The translations under genes were made by a program, and so were the position numbers. A model generated the notes under the pieces. The model did not search any database, was not told where the DNA came from, and was given only the letters and a program-made list of their open reading frames with translations. This document shows, piece after piece, positions 24,410 to 33,962 of a stretch of 64,000 bases of DNA. This stretch comes from Lingula anatina (Eukaryota > Animalia > Brachiopoda), in assembly GCA_051362555.1 (NCBI GenBank), contig CM120649.1:16568567-16632566 (forward strand), read 5' to 3'. Position 1 is the stretch's first letter, and every line of letters starts with the position of its first letter.

Positions 24410-24888
24410 GGGTGTGACTGAAATGCGCAATACACTGCAATACAGCGCAACACAGCGCAATACACTTGATAACACAAGTCCAGTTGCAAGTAAACACAGG
24501 AAAGGGTAATCTCAAATAAAATAGGGTGATATAAAAGCAAAATATAGTACATAGTAATTAATATTGCTGATACAACTTGACAATTTTTCATTGTTTGGTC
24601 AGCCGCCATGTTGGCGAGTAGCTCTTCTTGGCCAGTAATATATCCAAGAAGAGCCACTCGCCAACATGGCTGCCAACCGGACAATATAAAAGTCTTGCTG
24701 ATTTGTTAAGTTATATCAACGATATTACTTACCTAGTAATATATAGGTTGTTTTTATATCACCCCACTTTGCTGGGAATGGTCATTTCTTTTGTGTAATT
24801 GCAACTGGATTTGATTTTTGAAGTGTATTGCACTGTATTGCACTGTGTTGCACTGTATTGCGGTGTATTGCGCATTTCAGTCACACCG
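24410..24888. mobile_element. Non-autonomous Mutator/MULE-like element, ~140-bp TIRs, 9-bp TSD GCACGAAAG
   Basis: GCACGAAAG at 24401-24409 and 24889-24897; TIR GGTGTGACTGAAATGCGCAATACAC.../...GTGTATTGCGCATTTCAGTCACACC with internal 10-bp subrepeats. Confidence 0.85.
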
Positions 24889-25054: not shown

Positions 25055-28000
25055 ATGGCAGAGACCCAGCCTTCTGTGCGAGAAAACAGGGGGTCTCCAG
25101 TGAAGAGCGCCGCCAGTGGTGGAAGCCGTACCTCTATCAACATAACACTGCCAAAGACAAACCGTCCAGAGTCCCAGAGCCCAGGACAGACCCCTGTTGC
25201 CACCCCACGGCAGCCCGTCATCCACAGAGACACCAGTCAAGTCAATAATAACAACAGGAATATCAGTGAAAGAAGGCCGAAATCCAAGTCTTCTGGTCAT
25301 CACAGTGGTGTGTCTAACTCTGAGTAAGTTGATGCTTATTAAGATGGATAGTTAGTGAGGTTGTGTTATGCAAGTAAATTAAGAATAAAGCAGAGATTTT
25401 TCTTCAGTAAATATATGTCTAAGGGATACAATCAGTTTTAAATTAAAAGACTTATACACCTCCTTCTGGCATTGAGTAGAATACATAAAAACTGGTGATT
25501 ATACAAGAACTTTGGAAATGAGAGAAGTTGCGTTTATCTGTTATACAAATTGTATTGTATGAGAGTGTCCTGCCACAGTACTGTAGCTTCAGTGGAAATG
25601 AGCCCTTAAACTCATTCTTATTATTCTGTTAATCTTACATTTTATAGGGTGCATAATAATGTCACATATTTTGTTTCAGATTGAAGCGCATGACAGCAGC
25701 TAGAATTATAGAAAGGACGTGGTTATCCTACAGAGACAGACAAATGTTCAGGTTACTCAAACATGCTATCTGTGCAGCAGTGAGTATTTTAGTATCATTT
25801 AATATACTTTATATCTTTCATACATAGGATTTTTGGCTAACCAAGAGAAACAAACTGCACATCAAATAAAATAATATTTTTTGATATTGCTGAAATACAT
25901 TAATGTCTTGCAAAATCATGTTCAGTAAAATTAGATTAAAAGTAATGAATACATTAAAACATTACGTTTATTTCAATTGCCATTTCAGGAAAATTCTTTG
26001 ACATATGAAATATTAAGGAAAATAAGTCCACAAGAGGCAGAACTAATAAGGGACCCAAGTTTAGGAGTGAAAGTCAGATTTAGGTAAATTGATGCATGTG
26101 TTACATTATCAGTTTTGCTAGACTGAGTTCATTAATGTTGAAGTATTCTATCTTTTGCAGCTCTTGCTCAATGTTGAATGTGATGCTACATCAGTATCTG
26201 TACTATTGTGTTTTAGAAAATGTTTTTAAATATTTTATTTATTAACAATTATAATTGTAATTATAATTATTATTTGTAGCAGTAGTAGTGATTCTTTTTT
26301 TCTATCACTGGCTGAGAAACAGATAACTTTTTGTGAGAAATATAGTGTATTCTCCTGTGCTCACTCCTGGTTATATAATAAAACAGTGTTTTCTTCAGAA
26401 AAGGTACACTCGTCATTTTCTTTTCAGGTTTGGTGGAGAAGAATTTCCCCCAATGATATATTTCAAGAATTATACAACTTCCAAAGGAGTGCAATACCTT
26501 AGTGGCAAGAGAGTGATAAAGGCAGGGACTGAGGTCAGTGAGACTGAGTAGAACTTGATAATGGTTCTATTTCGTTTCTATACAAATGAGGTCATACGAG
26601 ATTCCCGTTTTATGCGAGAGCATATGCGCACTTGCGCACATCTCCACTTCCGGTTTTTTGTCGAGCGAGCACGGCACGTGGAAAAATTGTGGCACAAAAA
26701 TTTTCAAGAATATTCTAATATTATGGCTGAAAAGGTCGAAAGTAGACCAAAAGTTAAGAAAAATACGCATGGCCACAAGAAATCTTCCGACGGGAAGTCG
26801 AAAGAAAGTGGTGACTCACCACAATTTCTAACAGAAATTCAAACTCTGACACAGAGTAGCGTTCATGTGGAAAATGAAAATGGCGCGTCCACTAGTGCCG
26901 ATAATACCACGACTGTGGATCATAAAATTAGTGCAGCACTTGACTTCATAGCTGGCACAATGAAGAATATGCAAGATAATCTTCAAAAGCAAATGGAGGA
27001 TTTTAAAAACGAAATAAGGTATGAATATCCTCATGAGTATTATGAAGAGCCAATTTATGACGACACGTCAGTTCTTAGTGAGGCTCGGGATTCAGACCAA
27101 GTTGTCGAGATGGCAGACACTGCCCATAATGAAAATCCCAGTACCAGTAAAAGACACATAGAGGAAGAACTTCTTCCAGAAAAGAAAATGAAAGTCTTGA
27201 AGAAAATGACTGAAACAGCTAAAAAATCTGAGCCCAAAGGGCCTGAAATTAACACAACCTTAGCTGACAACATTACAGCATTCATGAGGTCTAAACCAAT
27301 GGAAGAGGAGACCAAAGCTCTTTTTGAGAAAATTTTAGCTCCTTCCAACTGTGAAGGTTTGCAGCCAATTATTATTAACGAGGAAATATGGCCTAGCATT
27401 AGTCATGATGCTAAAACACAAGATTTAAAGCTTCAGAGAGTGCAAAATTATTTGATAAAGGGCGTTTCCTCAATGGCAGTTGCAATGAACAAACTCATTA
27501 GTAAATGGGATTCAGATACTAAAAATTTGGAAGAAGAAGATTTTGAAGAAATAATCAATGATGCTACGAATGCACTTCGAGCATTTGGTTGCACAAACTT
27601 TGAACTTTGCACAAAAAGGAAAGAGGCTTTAAGACCTCACATTGATAAGCAATATTCACATTTGTGTGCAAGTTCCATCCCATATACAAATAGGCTTTTT
27701 GGGGATGAAATAGTAAAAAGAATCCGTGACATGTCTGATGTCAACAAAATGAATCACCAAGTGTTTAAAAACACTGGTTCATCATATTCTGGGACTCCCA
27801 GAGAAAGAGGAAGCAGAACCAGCATGCGAGCTAGGGGAAGAAGTTTTCCTCCTAAGAGCATAAGAGGTGCAAGAAGTGGCACCAGTAGAGGTCATATTAG
27901 GACCTATCACAGGCAGCAGGATTTAAAAAACTGCCCTGCAACTCTGCATCATTAGATGTGGAAAAGTTGAAGAAAATTTTTGAGGTAAGTCCTCAACATA

Positions 28001-31000
28001 ACATTGCTGGTAGAATATCAAAGTTTATTTCCCAATGGGAATTGCTGACATCTGATGCTTGGGTGTTACAGACTGTTAGAGGTTTAAGATTGGAATTTGT
28101 GGATAATAATTATCCTAAACAGACGACACCATTAAGAGAAATAAGATTCACAGAATCTGAAGGAAAATTGATTGATATTGAAGTTTCAAGATTATTATGT
28201 AAAGGTGTCATTGTTGAAACACAAAATGAAGAAGGACAATTTGTCAATACAATATTTACTAGGCCTAAAAAAGATGGCACAAGAAGAATGATATTAAATC
28301 TTAAACCTTTCAACAAATTTATGAAGTACCATAAGTTTAAAATGGATACTTTAAAGACAGTCTTGAATTTATTGTGTCATAAAGCATACATGGCACGCAT
28401 AGATTTACGAGATGCATATTATATGGTTAGAATTTACAAAGAGCATCAGAAGTTTCTCAAATTTCAATGGAGAAATAAATTATATATGTATACTGCCCTT
28501 CCAAATGGCTATTCAGATGCTCCAAGAGCATTCACAAAATTATTAAAGCCATTATGTGCATCCTTAAGAAGGAAAGGGATTATTATGATATCTTATATAG
28601 ATGACATTTATATACAAGCTAGTTCAGAAAATGAATGTCTATGGGCAGTACAAGAAACTGTTAAGTTATTCAAAACTTGTGGATTTTTGATCCATGAAGA
28701 AAAGTCAGCATTAATCCCAACTCAAGAAATTGTATTTTTGGGATTTAAAATAAACTCTAAAAATATGACTGTGCAACTGACCAATGAAAAGAAACAAGTT
28801 TATAAAGAAATGATTGATGATTCAATCAGAAGAGATGATGCATCTATTAGAGAAATTGCAAAAATATTAGGAATATTAATATCATGTTTGCCTGGAGTCC
28901 AATACGGGCCATTGCATTATAGGAAACTAGAGAGAGCAAAAATTAATGCATTGAAACAAAATAAAGATGATTATGAAGCTGTAATGGATATTACAGATGA
29001 CATGAAAGTAGATCTAGACTGGTGGTCTAGAAATATATTGTTTGCAACAAATAAAATTTATCATGGCAATGCACAGATTGAAATTCAATCAGATGCTACT
29101 CCTTTAGCATGGGGAGCTAAATGTAGAGATACAAGAATTGGTGGATTCTTTACTGAAGAAGAAATTTTATTCTGTCATGATAATATCAATGCATTTGAAT
29201 TGCTTGCTATAAAAATGGCTTTACATGCCTTTATTCAAGAAATCAAAGGAAAGGTAGTTTTATTGAGATCTGATAATACTACAGCAGTTGCATACATTAC
29301 ACATATGGGAGGTTTGAAATCCCCAGTTTGTGATGAAATAGTATCAGACATATGGAATAAATGCATTGAAAATGACATATGGCTTACTGCTGAATATTTG
29401 CCTGGAATATTAAATGTAGAGGCAGATTGGGAATCAAGAAATGTGAATATTAGAACTGAATGGTCACTAAATATTGATATATTTAAAAAAGTGACAGATA
29501 TATTTGGTATGCCATGTATAGATCTATTTGCATCAAGATTGAATAGCAAATTAGAAGTATTTGCTTCTTGGAAACCAGAACCTGGTGCTAAATACATAAA
29601 TGCTTTTTCAATATCTTGGGAGAATATGTATTCATACATTTTTCCTCTTTTCAGCCTGATTCCCAGGATAATCAAGAAGATTCGGGAAGATCAGGCAGAT
29701 GCTTTAGTTGTGATACCTTTTTGGTTGACACAAGCATGGTTCACTCCATTAATGGAAATGTTAGTAGACATCCCTATTCTGTTACCGCCAACAACAACAG
29801 TATTATCACTTCCACACCAGAAAGGGGTGACACACCCAATGGGAAATCACTTGAAACTGTTGGCATGCAAAGTATCCGGAAAACTCTCAAATCAGATAGA
29901 ATTTCAGAGAGAGCTATCGGAATCATATTTCAATCATGGAGAAAATCCACTCAGAACCAATATTCAGTCTATATTAAAAAGTGGAGAATGTTTTCAAATC
30001 AAAGGAAGGTCAATTTTTATAGACCAACTGTAGCGAATGTGCTAGATTTTTTAGTACATCTCTATGAAGATGGCTCAAGTTACAGTGCTATAAACACTGC
30101 AAGATGTGCATTATCAACATTTATTACCATTGGTGCTTCAACAGTGGGGAGTCATCCTTTGATTGTAAGGTTTTTGAAAGGAGTGTTTAACACTCGACCT
30201 ACTGCATCCAGATATCAACAAGTGTGGGATGTATCAATTGTTTTAAATTACATGAGAAAACTGTCACCAGCAAGGCAGTTATCACTGAAAGATCTAACAA
30301 TGAAGTTGATCATGCTTATGTCTCTAACATCTGCACAGAGAGCACAAACGTTGCATTTACTGAAGTTCCAAGAGTTAGAACTTCACAAAAACTATGTTTT
30401 ATTTAACATAAAAGAAACTTTGAAACAAACAAGACCAGGAATTGGTACAATATCTATACAATTTAAATCGTACCCTCCAGATAGGAGATTGTGTACATTG
30501 ACATATGTTAAGGAATATTTAAAAAGGACAAAGCCATTGAGAAATGGACAAGAAAAATTTTTTATTAGTTATAGAAAACCTTTCTCATCCGTTTCAAAAG
30601 ATACAATATCCAGATGGATTCGGATATTGATGCACCAAGCAGGTGTAGAGGAATCATTTAAGGCTCATTCAACCCGAGCTGCAGCAGTGTCGGCAGCAGA
30701 AAGAGCAAAAGTTCCCGTAGATGATATTTTGAAAGCAGCTGGATGGTCTTCAAGCAAGACTTTTGCAAAGTACTATAATAAACCCATTAAAGGGAAAGAG
30801 TTTGCTGACGCAGTTTTAAATAATTAGAAAAGGTATGTAGTACTATGTTCAGAGCCAAGTTGCTCTCGTGACCAGCAAGCTTCGAACTGTGGAGATGTGC
30901 GCAAGTGCGCATATGCTCTCGCATAAAACGGGAATCTCGTATGACCTCATTTGTATAGAAACGAAATAGAATTCAAAAATTAAATGAGATTTATTGAAAT

Positions 31001-33962
31001 TTAATTGAAATTCTATGAAGTTTCTAATACAAATGAGAGGTCATACGCCCACCCACCTCCCCTATTCCACAGCAAAAAGGGGGGGGGGGCAGTGCCTGGT
31101 TTACATAGTAACATGTAAAACCATATTTATGGGTTGATATTTGTAATGCACCTAAGATAACTTAAGTTATCATATCAATTCATTACCATATTTTGGGTTG
31201 GTATTTATAATGCACCTAAGATAATTATTTATATTATCTTCCTTTAGTTAACGGGATGAGAAGGATATACTTTGTCTGAAAAGGATTTCATATTCCTTTT
31301 ATTGTATAGTGGTATTACAATTGCATCAATTTTCTGGTATGCAGTGCTGGTCACTCGAGATAGTGACTATCGTGCGCAAGTGCTCTCGCAAAAACGGAAA
31401 TCTCGTATGACCTCTCATTTGTATTAGAAACTTCATAGAATTTCAATTAAATTTCAATAAATCTCATTTAATTTTTGAATTATGATTTATTGTGGAGAAA
31501 ATGACAATTTAGATTACTGATATGAAAGAAATGTTTTACATTTTATTGTTACTGTTTATGTTTGTTTCAGTAAAGTTTTTAGATTTATAACTGGAATTGT
31601 AGTTTAGCCTAGTTGATGACATTGCTTCTCCCTGACAAACACTTCAGCCTGTCTACTAAGAATACAGGTGAAATATTCTCAGTTTTGTTATGCAATATGT
31701 GCAGAAACTGTTTGATCTCCATGTTCCATTGCCTGGACAAATGCGACCCCCCTCCCCCCCCTCACCACCACCACCACCACCACCACCATCTCCATCCCCA
31801 TTACAATACAATGTGTTTTAATGCAGGCTGCCCAGGATGCCTGTGACCTGATGGGGAACAGAAAATTCCTGGACCAGATCATAGTGGATGCAGTTCACCA
31901 TGAACAGTTTAAAATAACAGATGAGATTGATGTCACAACATTAAAGGACTACATGCAGGTAAGAGCTTACCTTTAGGAGGCTTTAGGTATTGGAAGTGGG
32001 TTTCACTCTCAGTATGTGGTAGGAAATAGTAAATTGTTTTAGACTTCAGAATTCAGAAATTATCTCTGACATGTAAGAAATTAAAAACAAAAAGGTTAAA
32101 GCTACCTATGAATGGCTATAATGTGTCTTTTTTTTTTTCAACCTCCAATTCCAAATTATGTCAGATATATATTTTTTTAGTGTGGAGTTTCATAGAATTT
32201 TTTGAATTCATTTTGCCTTAATGTTGTATTACAAATGTCATTTGAACTGTAGTCTTCTGTATGTCCATAAATGTTGTATATAGTATTCATTATTTTCTTA
32301 AGAACATTCTTTTCTCTTGATAAGGAAATGTTTCCACAATGTCAGTGTCTTTATTATAATTATTATTATAAGAAATTGCTTATTTATCTGTTTCAGTATC
32401 TGAGTAAATTAGATGAAACTCCACATTATTTAGGAGGAAGAGAAAACCTATGGAGGAAACTCACATTGAATTGTAAGTTTGACACACAGCTTGATATTTG
32501 AATTTTACAGTGAAAGGGTTATTCTTATTCAGGACTTTTGTCTTGCTGGGGTGAATTACGTGTGTGTGTGTGTGTGTGCGTGCAGTATGTGTGCGTGCAC
32601 CTGTGTCATGTTAATAGTAAGTAGTTTAGTAACATTTCTTAAACATGGCATAGGTTTAAGAAAATCACACACTTCTGTTTTTGTTCCATAGCTTTGATGT
32701 GCTTCTCATTAAATAACCATACAACAAGAGTGTTATAACCATGTTTACATGTGGAAGTATTCACAAAGACTCCATTAGAAGTCTGCAATCTGTTCTTCCA
32801 GCTTTACCCAGAACCACCATATTCTTTGATGTGGTGGACTATCTGTATCATCACAGGATGTCCCCCAGGCTGAAGAAAGAGCTCCCTCAACTCCTCTCCA
32901 GGCCTATAACCCAGGAAACACAGCTCCAGCACATTAAGATCATATCTAGACTAAGGTATTGGGAGCTGATATATATTATTTCATATGAATCAATGATGTG
33001 TATTTGATTCAGTGTTAAAAATGGTTGCCTTGAGAAAAGATCAAGGATAGCATTTCAGTACACTTACTGAGGTGTGTTACCTGTTAAATCAGGCAAGGCA
33101 TACATGATTGTAAAGTCAGATGTTATATTAAAGTTGTCACATGGTCTTGTCACTTGGTTACAGATCTGAAAAATTATATAAATTTTATATAAATGTGTTT
33201 CTAAGTTTGCATTAGTTTTGTTCAAAGTAATTTTAAACTCTCCTCACCCCACAGTCAACAGGCTTATGACAACGTTTTTTCATTGTAGAACAACAGAAAG
33301 TGGGATTAATAATTAAAACAGTATTATATGTTAAATATAATGAGATGTCAGCTACATAGAAAATGTTGTAATCTCCCCAGGACCCCCGCTGTGACAGAAG
33401 CCCCAGGTCCCACTCCTAGGTCTACTAGGTACAGCCGCGAGTCGTCCAAGTTGACAGGGAGGAGGTCCAAACAGGCACAGATGAAGGCGGCTAAGATGAG
33501 GAGGATGTATGGGATGGAGAGCAGATCTGAGATGGTAGGTGGACTCTGTGTGTGCGTGACTGTGTGTATGTGCATGTGTGTGTGAGTGTGTTTGTATGAG
33601 TTACTGAGAGAGTGAGAAAAAAATGAGAAAGAAGGAGAGTGAAAGGATGAGATTAAAAACTGATAACTGACACGTTAAATTTTCTGTAAGTAAAAATACT
33701 AGTTTCTTTATTATGTCAATTGAATTTCAGTCTTCTGTATGTGCATAAATAAGTTGTTTATAGTATGCATTGTTATTTTGTTCAGACGTCCAGTGTTGGT
33801 CACTCTCCGTCCAGGCTGGGTCAGGCCCAGGGGTTAGGGGACAGTTACTACAGTGGAGACGAAGAGGAGGAAGAGGAATGGGAGAGAGAAGCCAATAAAC
33901 TTTATGAATGGACACAGGAACTGAAATTTGAAGAAGTGGATTCACCAGTCAAGGTGTTATAG
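25055..33962 (+). CDS. CXorf58: CXorf58-like protein, 9 coding exons, 420 aa
   Basis: Exons 25055-25323, 25680-25779, 25989-26083, 26428-26533, 31827-31958, 32397-32472, 32802-32955, 33381-33534, 33786-33962 (1263 nt, in frame). Motifs AARIIERTWLSY...FRLLKHAICAAE...KVRFRFGGEEFPP...DACDLMGNRKF...GGRENLWRKL...PRT...GRRSKQAQMKAAKMRRMY match my recollection of human CXorf58. Confidence 0.9.
26565..26647 (+). repeat. DIRS left ITR
   Basis: 83 bp exactly complementary to 30889-30971 and imperfectly inverted relative to 31372-31440. Confidence 0.9.
26723..27955 (+). CDS. DIRS gag-like ORF1
   Basis: Long ORF (likely ATG at 26723, MAEK) with a coiled-coil stretch, a P.NC..L.P...N.EIW core and a basic RG-rich C-terminus; position typical of DIRS ORF1. 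Confidence 0.85.
   Translation: MAEKVESRPKVKKNTHGHKKSSDGKSKESGDSPQFLTEIQTLTQSSVHVENENGASTSADNTTTVDHKISAALDFIAGTMKNMQDNLQKQMEDFKNEIRYEYPHEYYEEPIYDDTSVLSEARDSDQVVEMADTAHNENPSTSKRHIEEELLPEKKMKVLKKMTETAKKSEPKGPEINTTLADNITAFMRSKPMEEETKALFEKILAPSNCEGLQPIIINEEIWPSISHDAKTQDLKLQRVQNYLIKGVSSMAVAMNKLISKWDSDTKNLEEEDFEEIINDATNALRAFGCTNFELCTKRKEALRPHIDKQYSHLCASSIPYTNRLFGDEIVKRIRDMSDVNKMNHQVFKNTGSSYSGTPRERGSRTSMRARGRSFPPKSIRGARSGTSRGHIRTYHRQQDLKNCPATLHH
27901..30033 (+). CDS. DIRS pol: reverse transcriptase + RNase H + DNA N6-adenine methyltransferase-like domain (no ATG before the RT core; probably -1 frameshift from gag)
   Basis: RT motifs KKDG..RMILNL, IDLRDAY, LPNG...APRAFTK and YIDD; RNase H SDA...W, INAFEL, SDN, PG..N..ADWESR; MT-like IDLFAS...YIFPLF. 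The frame is open from 27901. Confidence 0.93.
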   Translation, partial: DLSQAAGFKKLPCNSASLDVEKLKKIFEVSPQHNIAGRISKFISQWELLTSDAWVLQTVRGLRLEFVDNNYPKQTTPLREIRFTESEGKLIDIEVSRLLCKGVIVETQNEEGQFVNTIFTRPKKDGTRRMILNLKPFNKFMKYHKFKMDTLKTVLNLLCHKAYMARIDLRDAYYMVRIYKEHQKFLKFQWRNKLYMYTALPNGYSDAPRAFTKLLKPLCASLRRKGIIMISYIDDIYIQASSENECLWAVQETVKLFKTCGFLIHEEKSALIPTQEIVFLGFKINSKNMTVQLTNEKKQVYKEMIDDSIRRDDASIREIAKILGILISCLPGVQYGPLHYRKLERAKINALKQNKDDYEAVMDITDDMKVDLDWWSRNILFATNKIYHGNAQIEIQSDATPLAWGAKCRDTRIGGFFTEEEILFCHDNINAFELLAIKMALHAFIQEIKGKVVLLRSDNTTAVAYITHMGGLKSPVCDEIVSDIWNKCIENDIWLTAEYLPGILNVEADWESRNVNIRTEWSLNIDIFKKVTDIFGMPCIDLFASRLNSKLEVFASWKPEPGAKYINAFSISWENMYSYIFPLFSLIPRIIKKIREDQADALVVIPFWLTQAWFTPLMEMLVDIPILLPPTTTVLSLPHQKGVTHPMGNHLKLLACKVSGKLSNQIEFQRELSESYFNHGENPLRTNIQSILKSGECFQIKGRSIFIDQL
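29655..30827 (+). CDS. DIRS tyrosine recombinase (overlaps the 3' end of pol)
   Basis: SAM-like core-binding region (STQNQYSVYIKKW, SYSAINTARCALS) and catalytic residues R (AQRAQ), K (LKQTR), H-x-x-R (HSTR), W (AGWSS) and Y (FAKYY). The start is uncertain. Confidence 0.93.
   Translation, partial: PDSQDNQEDSGRSGRCFSCDTFLVDTSMVHSINGNVSRHPYSVTANNNSIITSTPERGDTPNGKSLETVGMQSIRKTLKSDRISERAIGIIFQSWRKSTQNQYSVYIKKWRMFSNQRKVNFYRPTVANVLDFLVHLYEDGSSYSAINTARCALSTFITIGASTVGSHPLIVRFLKGVFNTRPTASRYQQVWDVSIVLNYMRKLSPARQLSLKDLTMKLIMLMSLTSAQRAQTLHLLKFQELELHKNYVLFNIKETLKQTRPGIGTISIQFKSYPPDRRLCTLTYVKEYLKRTKPLRNGQEKFFISYRKPFSSVSKDTISRWIRILMHQAGVEESFKAHSTRAAAVSAAERAKVPVDDILKAAGWSSSKTFAKYYNKPIKGKEFADAVLNN
30889..31047. 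repeat. DIRS internal complementary region (ICR)
   Basis: 30889-30971 is the reverse complement of the left end 26565-26647; 30972-31047 is the reverse complement of the right end 31404-31479. The two halves join at GAATTC, the predicted circle junction. Confidence 0.93.
31372..31479 (+). repeat. DIRS right ITR plus right extension
   Basis: GTGCGCAAGTGCTCTCGCAAAAACGGAAATCTCGTATGACCTCTCATTTGTATTAGAAAC... is an imperfect inverse of the left end, followed by a ~40-bp AT-rich extension matched by the ICR. Confidence 0.9.

Follow-up and report, generated by a model that had tools for sequence, protein, structure and literature searches.

Tyrosine recombinase (YR) retrotransposons often carry a recombinase gene without a start codon. 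How they express this gene is unexplained in the available text of the literature searched, where one proposal was found, i.e., a second frameshift in Ngaro elements. The question is raised by a 64,000-nucleotide (nt) stretch of the Lingula anatina genome (contig CM120649.1, positions 16,568,567 to 16,632,566), called here the window. An intact DIRS1-like retrotransposon lies at about 26564-31481 on the + strand of the window, within an intron of a host gene, and encodes a gag-like open reading frame (ORF1), pol, and YR. It is likely that one -1 frameshift feeds two RNAs of this element. The unspliced RNA would give a fusion of Gag to reverse transcriptase, RNase H and methyltransferase (Gag-RT-RH-MT), and the spliced RNA would give Gag-YR.

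The arrangement of the gag and pol frames is the starting point of this scheme. ORF1 is located at 26723..27955 (+ strand) and encodes 410 amino acids (aa); its likely start codon has a favourable context (ATTATGG). The pol frame, which holds the RT, the RNase H and a methyltransferase-like domain, spans 27901..30033 (+ strand; 710 codons from stop to stop). It opens after the TAG at 27898-27900 and is -1 relative to gag, which is terminated by the TAG at 27953-27955. The first ATG of the pol frame is codon 130 (28288), inside the RVT_1 domain. Two overlapping slippery heptamers, i.e., U UUA AAA (27922) and A AAA AAC (27925), were found at 27922..27931 (+ strand), both in the gag frame. A preliminary description of the window had placed pol in the -1 frame, open from 27901 and without ATG before the RT, and had read the two heptamers as slip sites in the correct phase. 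Every coordinate of that layout was confirmed, as were the position and phase of both heptamers.

Downstream of the TAG that precedes pol, the transframe segment (27901..27984, + strand) is read in the pol frame, contains no ATG, and is common to both predicted fusions. A stem-loop was predicted 3' of the slip site at 27937..27971 (+ strand; -12.1 kcal/mol). It includes the gag stop and is a candidate stimulator of frameshifting, with modest folding z-scores of -1.7 to -2.2 in four folding windows and -3.2 in a 50-nt one.

The donor of the putative intron follows the slip site closely. The 5' splice site GAG/GTAAGT is located at 27982..27990 (+ strand), so that the intron starts at 27985, in phase 0 of the pol frame and 29 nt past the gag stop. 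The hexamer GTAAGT occurs once in the element, at 27985, and by a simple score the donor ties for the best of 209 GT sites within the element. The 3' splice site is located at 29631..29654 (+ strand). The acceptor TTTTCCTCTTTTCAG ends at 29654, and base 29655 begins a codon of the YR frame (PDSQD...). By a simple score, it is the most pyrimidine-rich of the 138 YAG sites within the element. The intron defined by these GT..AG ends is 1670 nt long (27985..29654, + strand). It covers the RT, the RNase H and most of the methyltransferase, and is retained in the genomic/pol RNA.

The acceptor stands inside the codons of a methyltransferase motif, Y-I-F-P-L-F-S, in which Ser is encoded by AGC. The motif, generally Y-x-F-P-P-F-S, is conserved in 120 homologues, i.e., F in 119, P in 119, P in 117, F in 120, and S in 101. 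Because the pyrimidine tract encodes this conserved motif, the tract alone is expected from protein constraint and is not evidence by itself. The evidence for the acceptor is the AG plus the point where the YR frame opens. The donor and its phase, and the acceptor with a YR codon beginning at its next base, had been predicted before and were found as predicted; the coding role of the tract had been overlooked.

The predicted junction 27984/29655 was looked for in eight of nine RNA runs obtained by species label. From 6 to 30% of each run was read, and a joint was listed when supported by at least 3 reads. In run X9, the junction is present at the exact bases, in reads of another family copy. 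Eight reads with 7 starts, and up to 63 nt on the short side, skip exactly 1670 nt with GT..AG ends. With bins placed at the intron ends, the mean depth in X9 fell from 15.7 ahead of the intron to 3.05 within it, and rose to 17.2 beyond it (ratio 0.18). About 80% of X9 coverage is without the intron, and reads are present along its whole length. The depth ratio of intron to flanks was 0.30 in X8. In X4 and X7, the depth over pol was also below that over gag and YR, and X1 and X2 were too sparse to judge. RNA of one copy of this DIRS1-like family skips 27985-29654 at GT..AG ends.

Relatives of the element were gathered by pol alignment from 80 metagenome loci and 15 genome-contig loci, and a scan of viral contigs gave no relative. 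For the tests of the 5' region, a DNA identity cut-off of 80% sorted 84 sequences with the RT start, including the window copy, into 55 families. In 44 of the 55, pol is at -1 to a long ORF1 whose end lies 0-130 nt upstream of the RT start. The other 11 were excluded because they were truncated, decayed or of other layout (e.g., L028, L030, L061, and L083). The 44 families are divergent, with a median RT identity of 48%. Within the overlap, 32 families carry the heptamer UUUUUUA or AAAAAAC in gag register, against 0.3 expected from gag windows of equal size, and 1 and 0 families carry it in the two other frames. When every canonical X XXY YYZ heptamer in gag register was counted, 36 of 44 families were positive against 3.3 expected.

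For the donor, the interval from the gag stop to the first RT motif was scanned for sites matching at least 5 of 7 consensus positions. Such a site was found in 40 of 44 families, compared with 3.9 expected when pol windows of equal size are taken. Of these 40 sites, 38 are in phase 0 of the pol frame (32 of 87 in null windows), and 33 of the 44 families have no pol-frame Met upstream of the donor. The donors lie 15-89 nt from the first RT motif and comprise 34 different 9-mers; given this variation in distance and sequence, no protein motif explains them. Both the donor and the slip site are located in unalignable sequence at variable positions. When the families were merged into 26 groups at 60% protein identity, the donor was kept in 22 groups and the slip site in 17.

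The donor also lies close to the gag stop, i.e., 2-42 nt past it in 43 of 44 families. Among long windows, 26 of 27 had the donor within 45 nt of the stop, against 14.8 under uniform placement. This excess is a lead only, because the constraint on the RT N-terminus also pushes donors upstream. The distance between donor and stop is within the range usually said to escape junction-dependent nonsense-mediated decay.

The acceptor was tested in 45 families, after 2 too short and 5 with a broken pol frame were left out of the 52 families with the motif. Where an AG stands at the motif, the YR frame averages 5.4 stops in the preceding 60 codons and 0.06 in the following 60. Fully open frames over the 60 codons after the acceptor were seen in 30 of 31 AG families, and none was open before it. 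The 14 families without this AG include 3 with an open frame, and each of the 14 carries an in-phase YAG farther downstream, no earlier than the last stop. In 6 of these 14, the last YR-frame stop is the TAG of that YAG. More broadly, TAG is the final stop of the YR frame in 20 of 44 families, compared with 228 of 1451 earlier stops. The Ser codon after FPPF is AGY in 35 of 40 Ser cases, compared with 22% elsewhere in pol. In the clade of L008, L059, L060, and L069, the likely acceptor is a TGCAG immediately ahead of the recombinase domains, a downstream shift of about 70 codons, and the YR frame of this clade is full of stops up to the TGCAG. In about 44-45 divergent families, the conservation of slip site, donor and acceptor with their phases, which the preliminary description had offered as a check, greatly exceeds that in matched nulls.

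Database proteins gave no direct view of the fusion. Among the N-terminally extended matches in the best 120 of 726 YR database proteins, no join of transframe segment to YR was found; the extensions are overlap-frame or pol-frame gene models. In one Mytilus gene model, P0144, which is a prediction, pol sequence is joined to YR-frame sequence at the site corresponding to the window acceptor.

Some relatives show other features. The pol frame is open for 414-505 codons upstream in L030, L061, and L083, and the YR frame is open for 630 codons in L028. These four families, mostly without the donor and slip pattern, may have another layout, e.g., an in-frame gag-pol or a long pol/YR overlap. The loci L081-L095 are DIRS elements inside bacterial genome bins, e.g., several contigs labelled Sedimenticola, and most likely represent contamination from host animals.

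On the proposed scheme, most ribosomes would stop at the gag stop and produce the ORF1 protein from either RNA. A minority would slip -1 at A AAA AAC, enter the pol frame and translate about 19 codons of the transframe segment. On the unspliced RNA, the slipped ribosomes would continue through RT, RNase H and methyltransferase, giving a protein of about 1,100 aa. On the spliced RNA, the phase-0 donor would join the slipped ribosomes to the YR frame, giving about 810 aa, and the approximately 93 codons ahead of the YR domains would serve as a linker. The rate of frameshifting would then set the amount of enzyme against ORF1 protein, and the rate of splicing would set RT against YR. A switch between unspliced and spliced RNA was the central claim of the preliminary description. 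Its splice was found in RNA and its phased signals are conserved; from these we infer the ribosomal shift, the two fusion proteins, including Gag-YR, and the dosage logic.

For a large group of DIRS1-like retrotransposons, a code of two switches appears likely. A -1 shift of the type of human immunodeficiency virus (HIV) or mouse mammary tumour virus (MMTV) would be common to two isoforms, and an intron that is itself the pol gene would pick the RT or the YR fusion. The acceptor, placed in the methyltransferase motif, would move downstream when lost, and the donor, within approximately 45 nt of the gag stop, would possibly escape nonsense-mediated decay.

Several results weigh against this scheme. 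The joint 27984/29655 was listed in one of the eight runs, the other seven being mostly below depth 10. X5 had no depth drop over the intron (ratio 0.93), and the drop in X6 was weak (0.61). The X9 joint reads carry substitutions, a 3-nt deletion in gag and a different 3' flank, and so come from another copy of the family. A slippery heptamer is absent in 4 of 44 families. The downstream hairpin is modest, with z below -2 in 13 of 40 families against 2 of 40 controls (p 0.048), and the donor score is a simple consensus count devised for this analysis. On a tree of the gathered relatives, the link between the AG and the open frame amounts to 8 changes, with 3 independent pairs on well-supported branches, and is not significant, so that the Fisher value obtained across families overstates independence. 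Many relatives have a Met 5-27 codons past the acceptor, and the window copy has one at YR codon 28.

These Met codons bear on the main rival, in which the splice is real and the spliced RNA yields free YR from an AUG of its own, by leaky scanning or by reinitiation past the gag stop, without any Gag fusion. After splicing, tens of bases separate the gag stop from the YR frame, the alternative acceptor directly precedes an ATG in L005, L017, L024, L025, and L062, and the gene calls of many database YR proteins begin at a Met five codons beyond the acceptor position. However, in 9 of 30 open AG families no Met occurs before codon 90, where the SAM-like domain begins at about codon 93, and a Met within 5 codons of the acceptor was found in 2 of 30 only. 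A free start needs no phase-0 donor, yet nearly all donors are in that phase, and reinitiation after an ORF of about 400 codons is usually poor. Free YR is thus considered unlikely. The X9 junction reads could also stem from an intronless genomic copy, i.e., a spliced RNA that was reverse-transcribed and reinserted, while full-length copies splice rarely or never today. The joint was seen in one run and one other copy, and the spliced RNA keeps both termini and the internal complementary region (ICR), hence it could be copied back. Such a derivative would itself be a product of the splice, since the exact GT..AG ends still imply splicing at some time. The X9 reads present along the whole intron, and signals that are kept across families of such low RT identity, which a one-off deletion cannot explain, make this origin improbable.

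Alternatively, protein motifs and base composition could produce the signals as a by-product, and the splice could be cryptic and functionless. In favour of this, the pyrimidine tract encodes the FPPF motif, descent can preserve AGY Ser codons, and the independent-pairs test gave no significance. This explanation is scarcely credible when the donor and slip sites occur at varying positions in unalignable sequence, their counts exceed matched nulls tenfold to a hundredfold, and most X9 coverage is without the intron. A further possibility is that ribosomes slip -1 a second time where pol and YR overlap, giving Gag-pol-YR, as proposed for Ngaro in the available text of PMC13003380. YR is -1 to pol and overlaps it, and at 29841 the pol frame of the window copy contains G GGA AAU. 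This candidate was rejected as very improbable. Canonical heptamers in the pol frame of the overlap were found in 7 of 44 families against 13.3 expected, the strong pair UUUUUUA/AAAAAAC in 0 of 44, and the YR frame opens at the acceptor and shifts along with it.

The YR frame spans 29592-30827, and its exon (29655..30827, + strand) encodes 390 aa. The linker of approximately 93 codons, which overlaps pol, is rich in S, T, N, D, and G, and is followed by the SAM-like and catalytic tyrosine-recombinase domains. Domain matches to Phage_integrase (E 3e-09) and Phage_int_SAM_4 (E 6e-04) were obtained. The R, HSTR, AAGW, and YY motifs were located in the sequence, presumably with their usual roles in the recombinase. 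In pol, a Pfam-type domain search gave a match to RVT_1 (E 1.6e-19, residues 128-284) and none to a protease family. Among aligned pol members, which are 40-54% identical over most of their length, Dam was found in 35 of 48 and RT_RNaseH in 20 of 48; neither was detected in the window's own protein.

ORF1 could be aligned to the ORF1 of 34 relatives at 13-26% identity. None of the Pfam families matched it, and Foldseek against the PDB and viral libraries gave no fold with an E of 0.001 or below. Its structure model is helical, with a predicted local distance difference test (pLDDT) score of 69.9. The earlier suggestion that both enzymes could be packaged as Gag fusions appears unsupported, since ORF1 gave no capsid-like match in these searches.

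The termini are inverted. The left terminus, i.e., the left inverted repeat (26564..26647, + strand), starts with GTT and contains an 83-nt perfect complement (26565-26647) to 30889-30971. The ICR (30889..31047, + strand) complements 26565-26647 and 31404-31481, and these perfect complements of 83 nt and 78 nt to the element ends meet at the AAT circle junction (30970-30972). This arrangement differs from split direct repeats. The right inverted repeat with the right extension is located at 31391..31481 (+ strand). The element end is ATT, and reads of other copies leave the match at 31482-31483. A second intron bracketing the ICR was considered, with a strong donor at 30833 after the YR stop and acceptor-like sites at 31072 and 31247. 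It was rejected, as the donor is not conserved (6 of 31 families, 2.8 being expected) and the reads contain no such joint. With a YR ORF in place of a DDE integrase, a pol without protease, and inverted termini with an ICR of 3-bp junction, the element fits the DIRS1-like definition in the available text of PMC3266345 in these respects, ORF1 being a putative gag.

Host exons on the + strand flank the element (25680-26533 and 31827-31958), and these flanking exons are joined in RNA in 4 of 4 runs. Host RNA joints were found at 25779/25989, 26083/26428, and 26533/31827. The exon peptides appear to resemble C11orf65/MFI. No joint from a host donor to the element acceptor was listed in the RNA runs, despite the same strand. 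At 24411-24887, a small element resembling a miniature inverted-repeat transposable element, with 10-nt tandem units, was also noted.

The element is thus of a known kind, and its expression scheme was not found in print in the available text of the literature searched. No report of a DIRS splice that skips pol, or of a slip site between gag and pol, was found in this text (PMC7192593, PMC3266345, PMC13003380, PMC4495291, PMC9210276, PMC3783388, PMC6681497, PMC4157794, PMC8547959, PMC9341512, PMC9940879, and PMC5580714), a search that leaves older subscription papers, Repbase notes and supplements aside. In the available text of PMC3266345, no mention of splicing, introns or translation was found, and in that of PMC7192593 the word spliced refers to a reporter intron.

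The existence of exact, mutable signals together with a junction in RNA makes the question of recombinase expression directly testable. The scheme predicts uncut Gag-RT and Gag-YR fusions, as well as intronless gag-YR derivatives in genomes. Such elements would be misdescribed by YR gene models that take an internal Met as their start and by RNA-seq counts restricted to RT.

Several known systems resemble parts of this scheme. The heptamers of -1 gag-pol frameshifting include UUUUUUA of HIV-1 and AAAAAAC of gag-pro in MMTV and human T-lymphotropic virus (HTLV). Retroviral and Ty3/gypsy gag-pol frameshifting shares with the DIRS1-like families the same two heptamers, the same frame relation and often a downstream hairpin. 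There, the integrase is part of Pol and is freed by protease, whereas here the integration enzyme would replace RT through splicing. The spliced env RNA of retroviruses and gypsy, and the spliced pol RNA of foamy viruses, likewise give access to a 3' ORF through removal of internal coding sequence. Gag is lost from those RNAs and no frameshift is required, whereas here the donor lies past the gag stop, behind the slip site.

Closer to the element, the DIRS1-like elements of PMC3266345 and PMC7192593 share ORF1, RT-RH-MT, YR, inverted termini, an ICR with a 3-bp circle junction, and a short pol/YR overlap. The available text of both describes the ORF overlap and gives no expression route. DIRS elements are without protease, according to the available text of PMC3783388. 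In Ngaro-like elements, YR also overlaps the end of pol in the -1 frame, and a programmed pol-to-YR frameshift was proposed in a review (Poulter and Butler 2015) quoted in the available text of PMC13003380, the only expression route found proposed there or elsewhere in the literature searched. The difference is that the slip signal here stands at gag/pol, and none is enriched at pol/YR, where the splice acceptor stands. Plant Ty1/Copia elements, in the available text of PMC5580714, offer a conserved alternative splice that sets a protein ratio within a retrotransposon. Their short spliced RNA gives GAG alone, whereas here gag is left whole and the downstream enzyme would be swapped.

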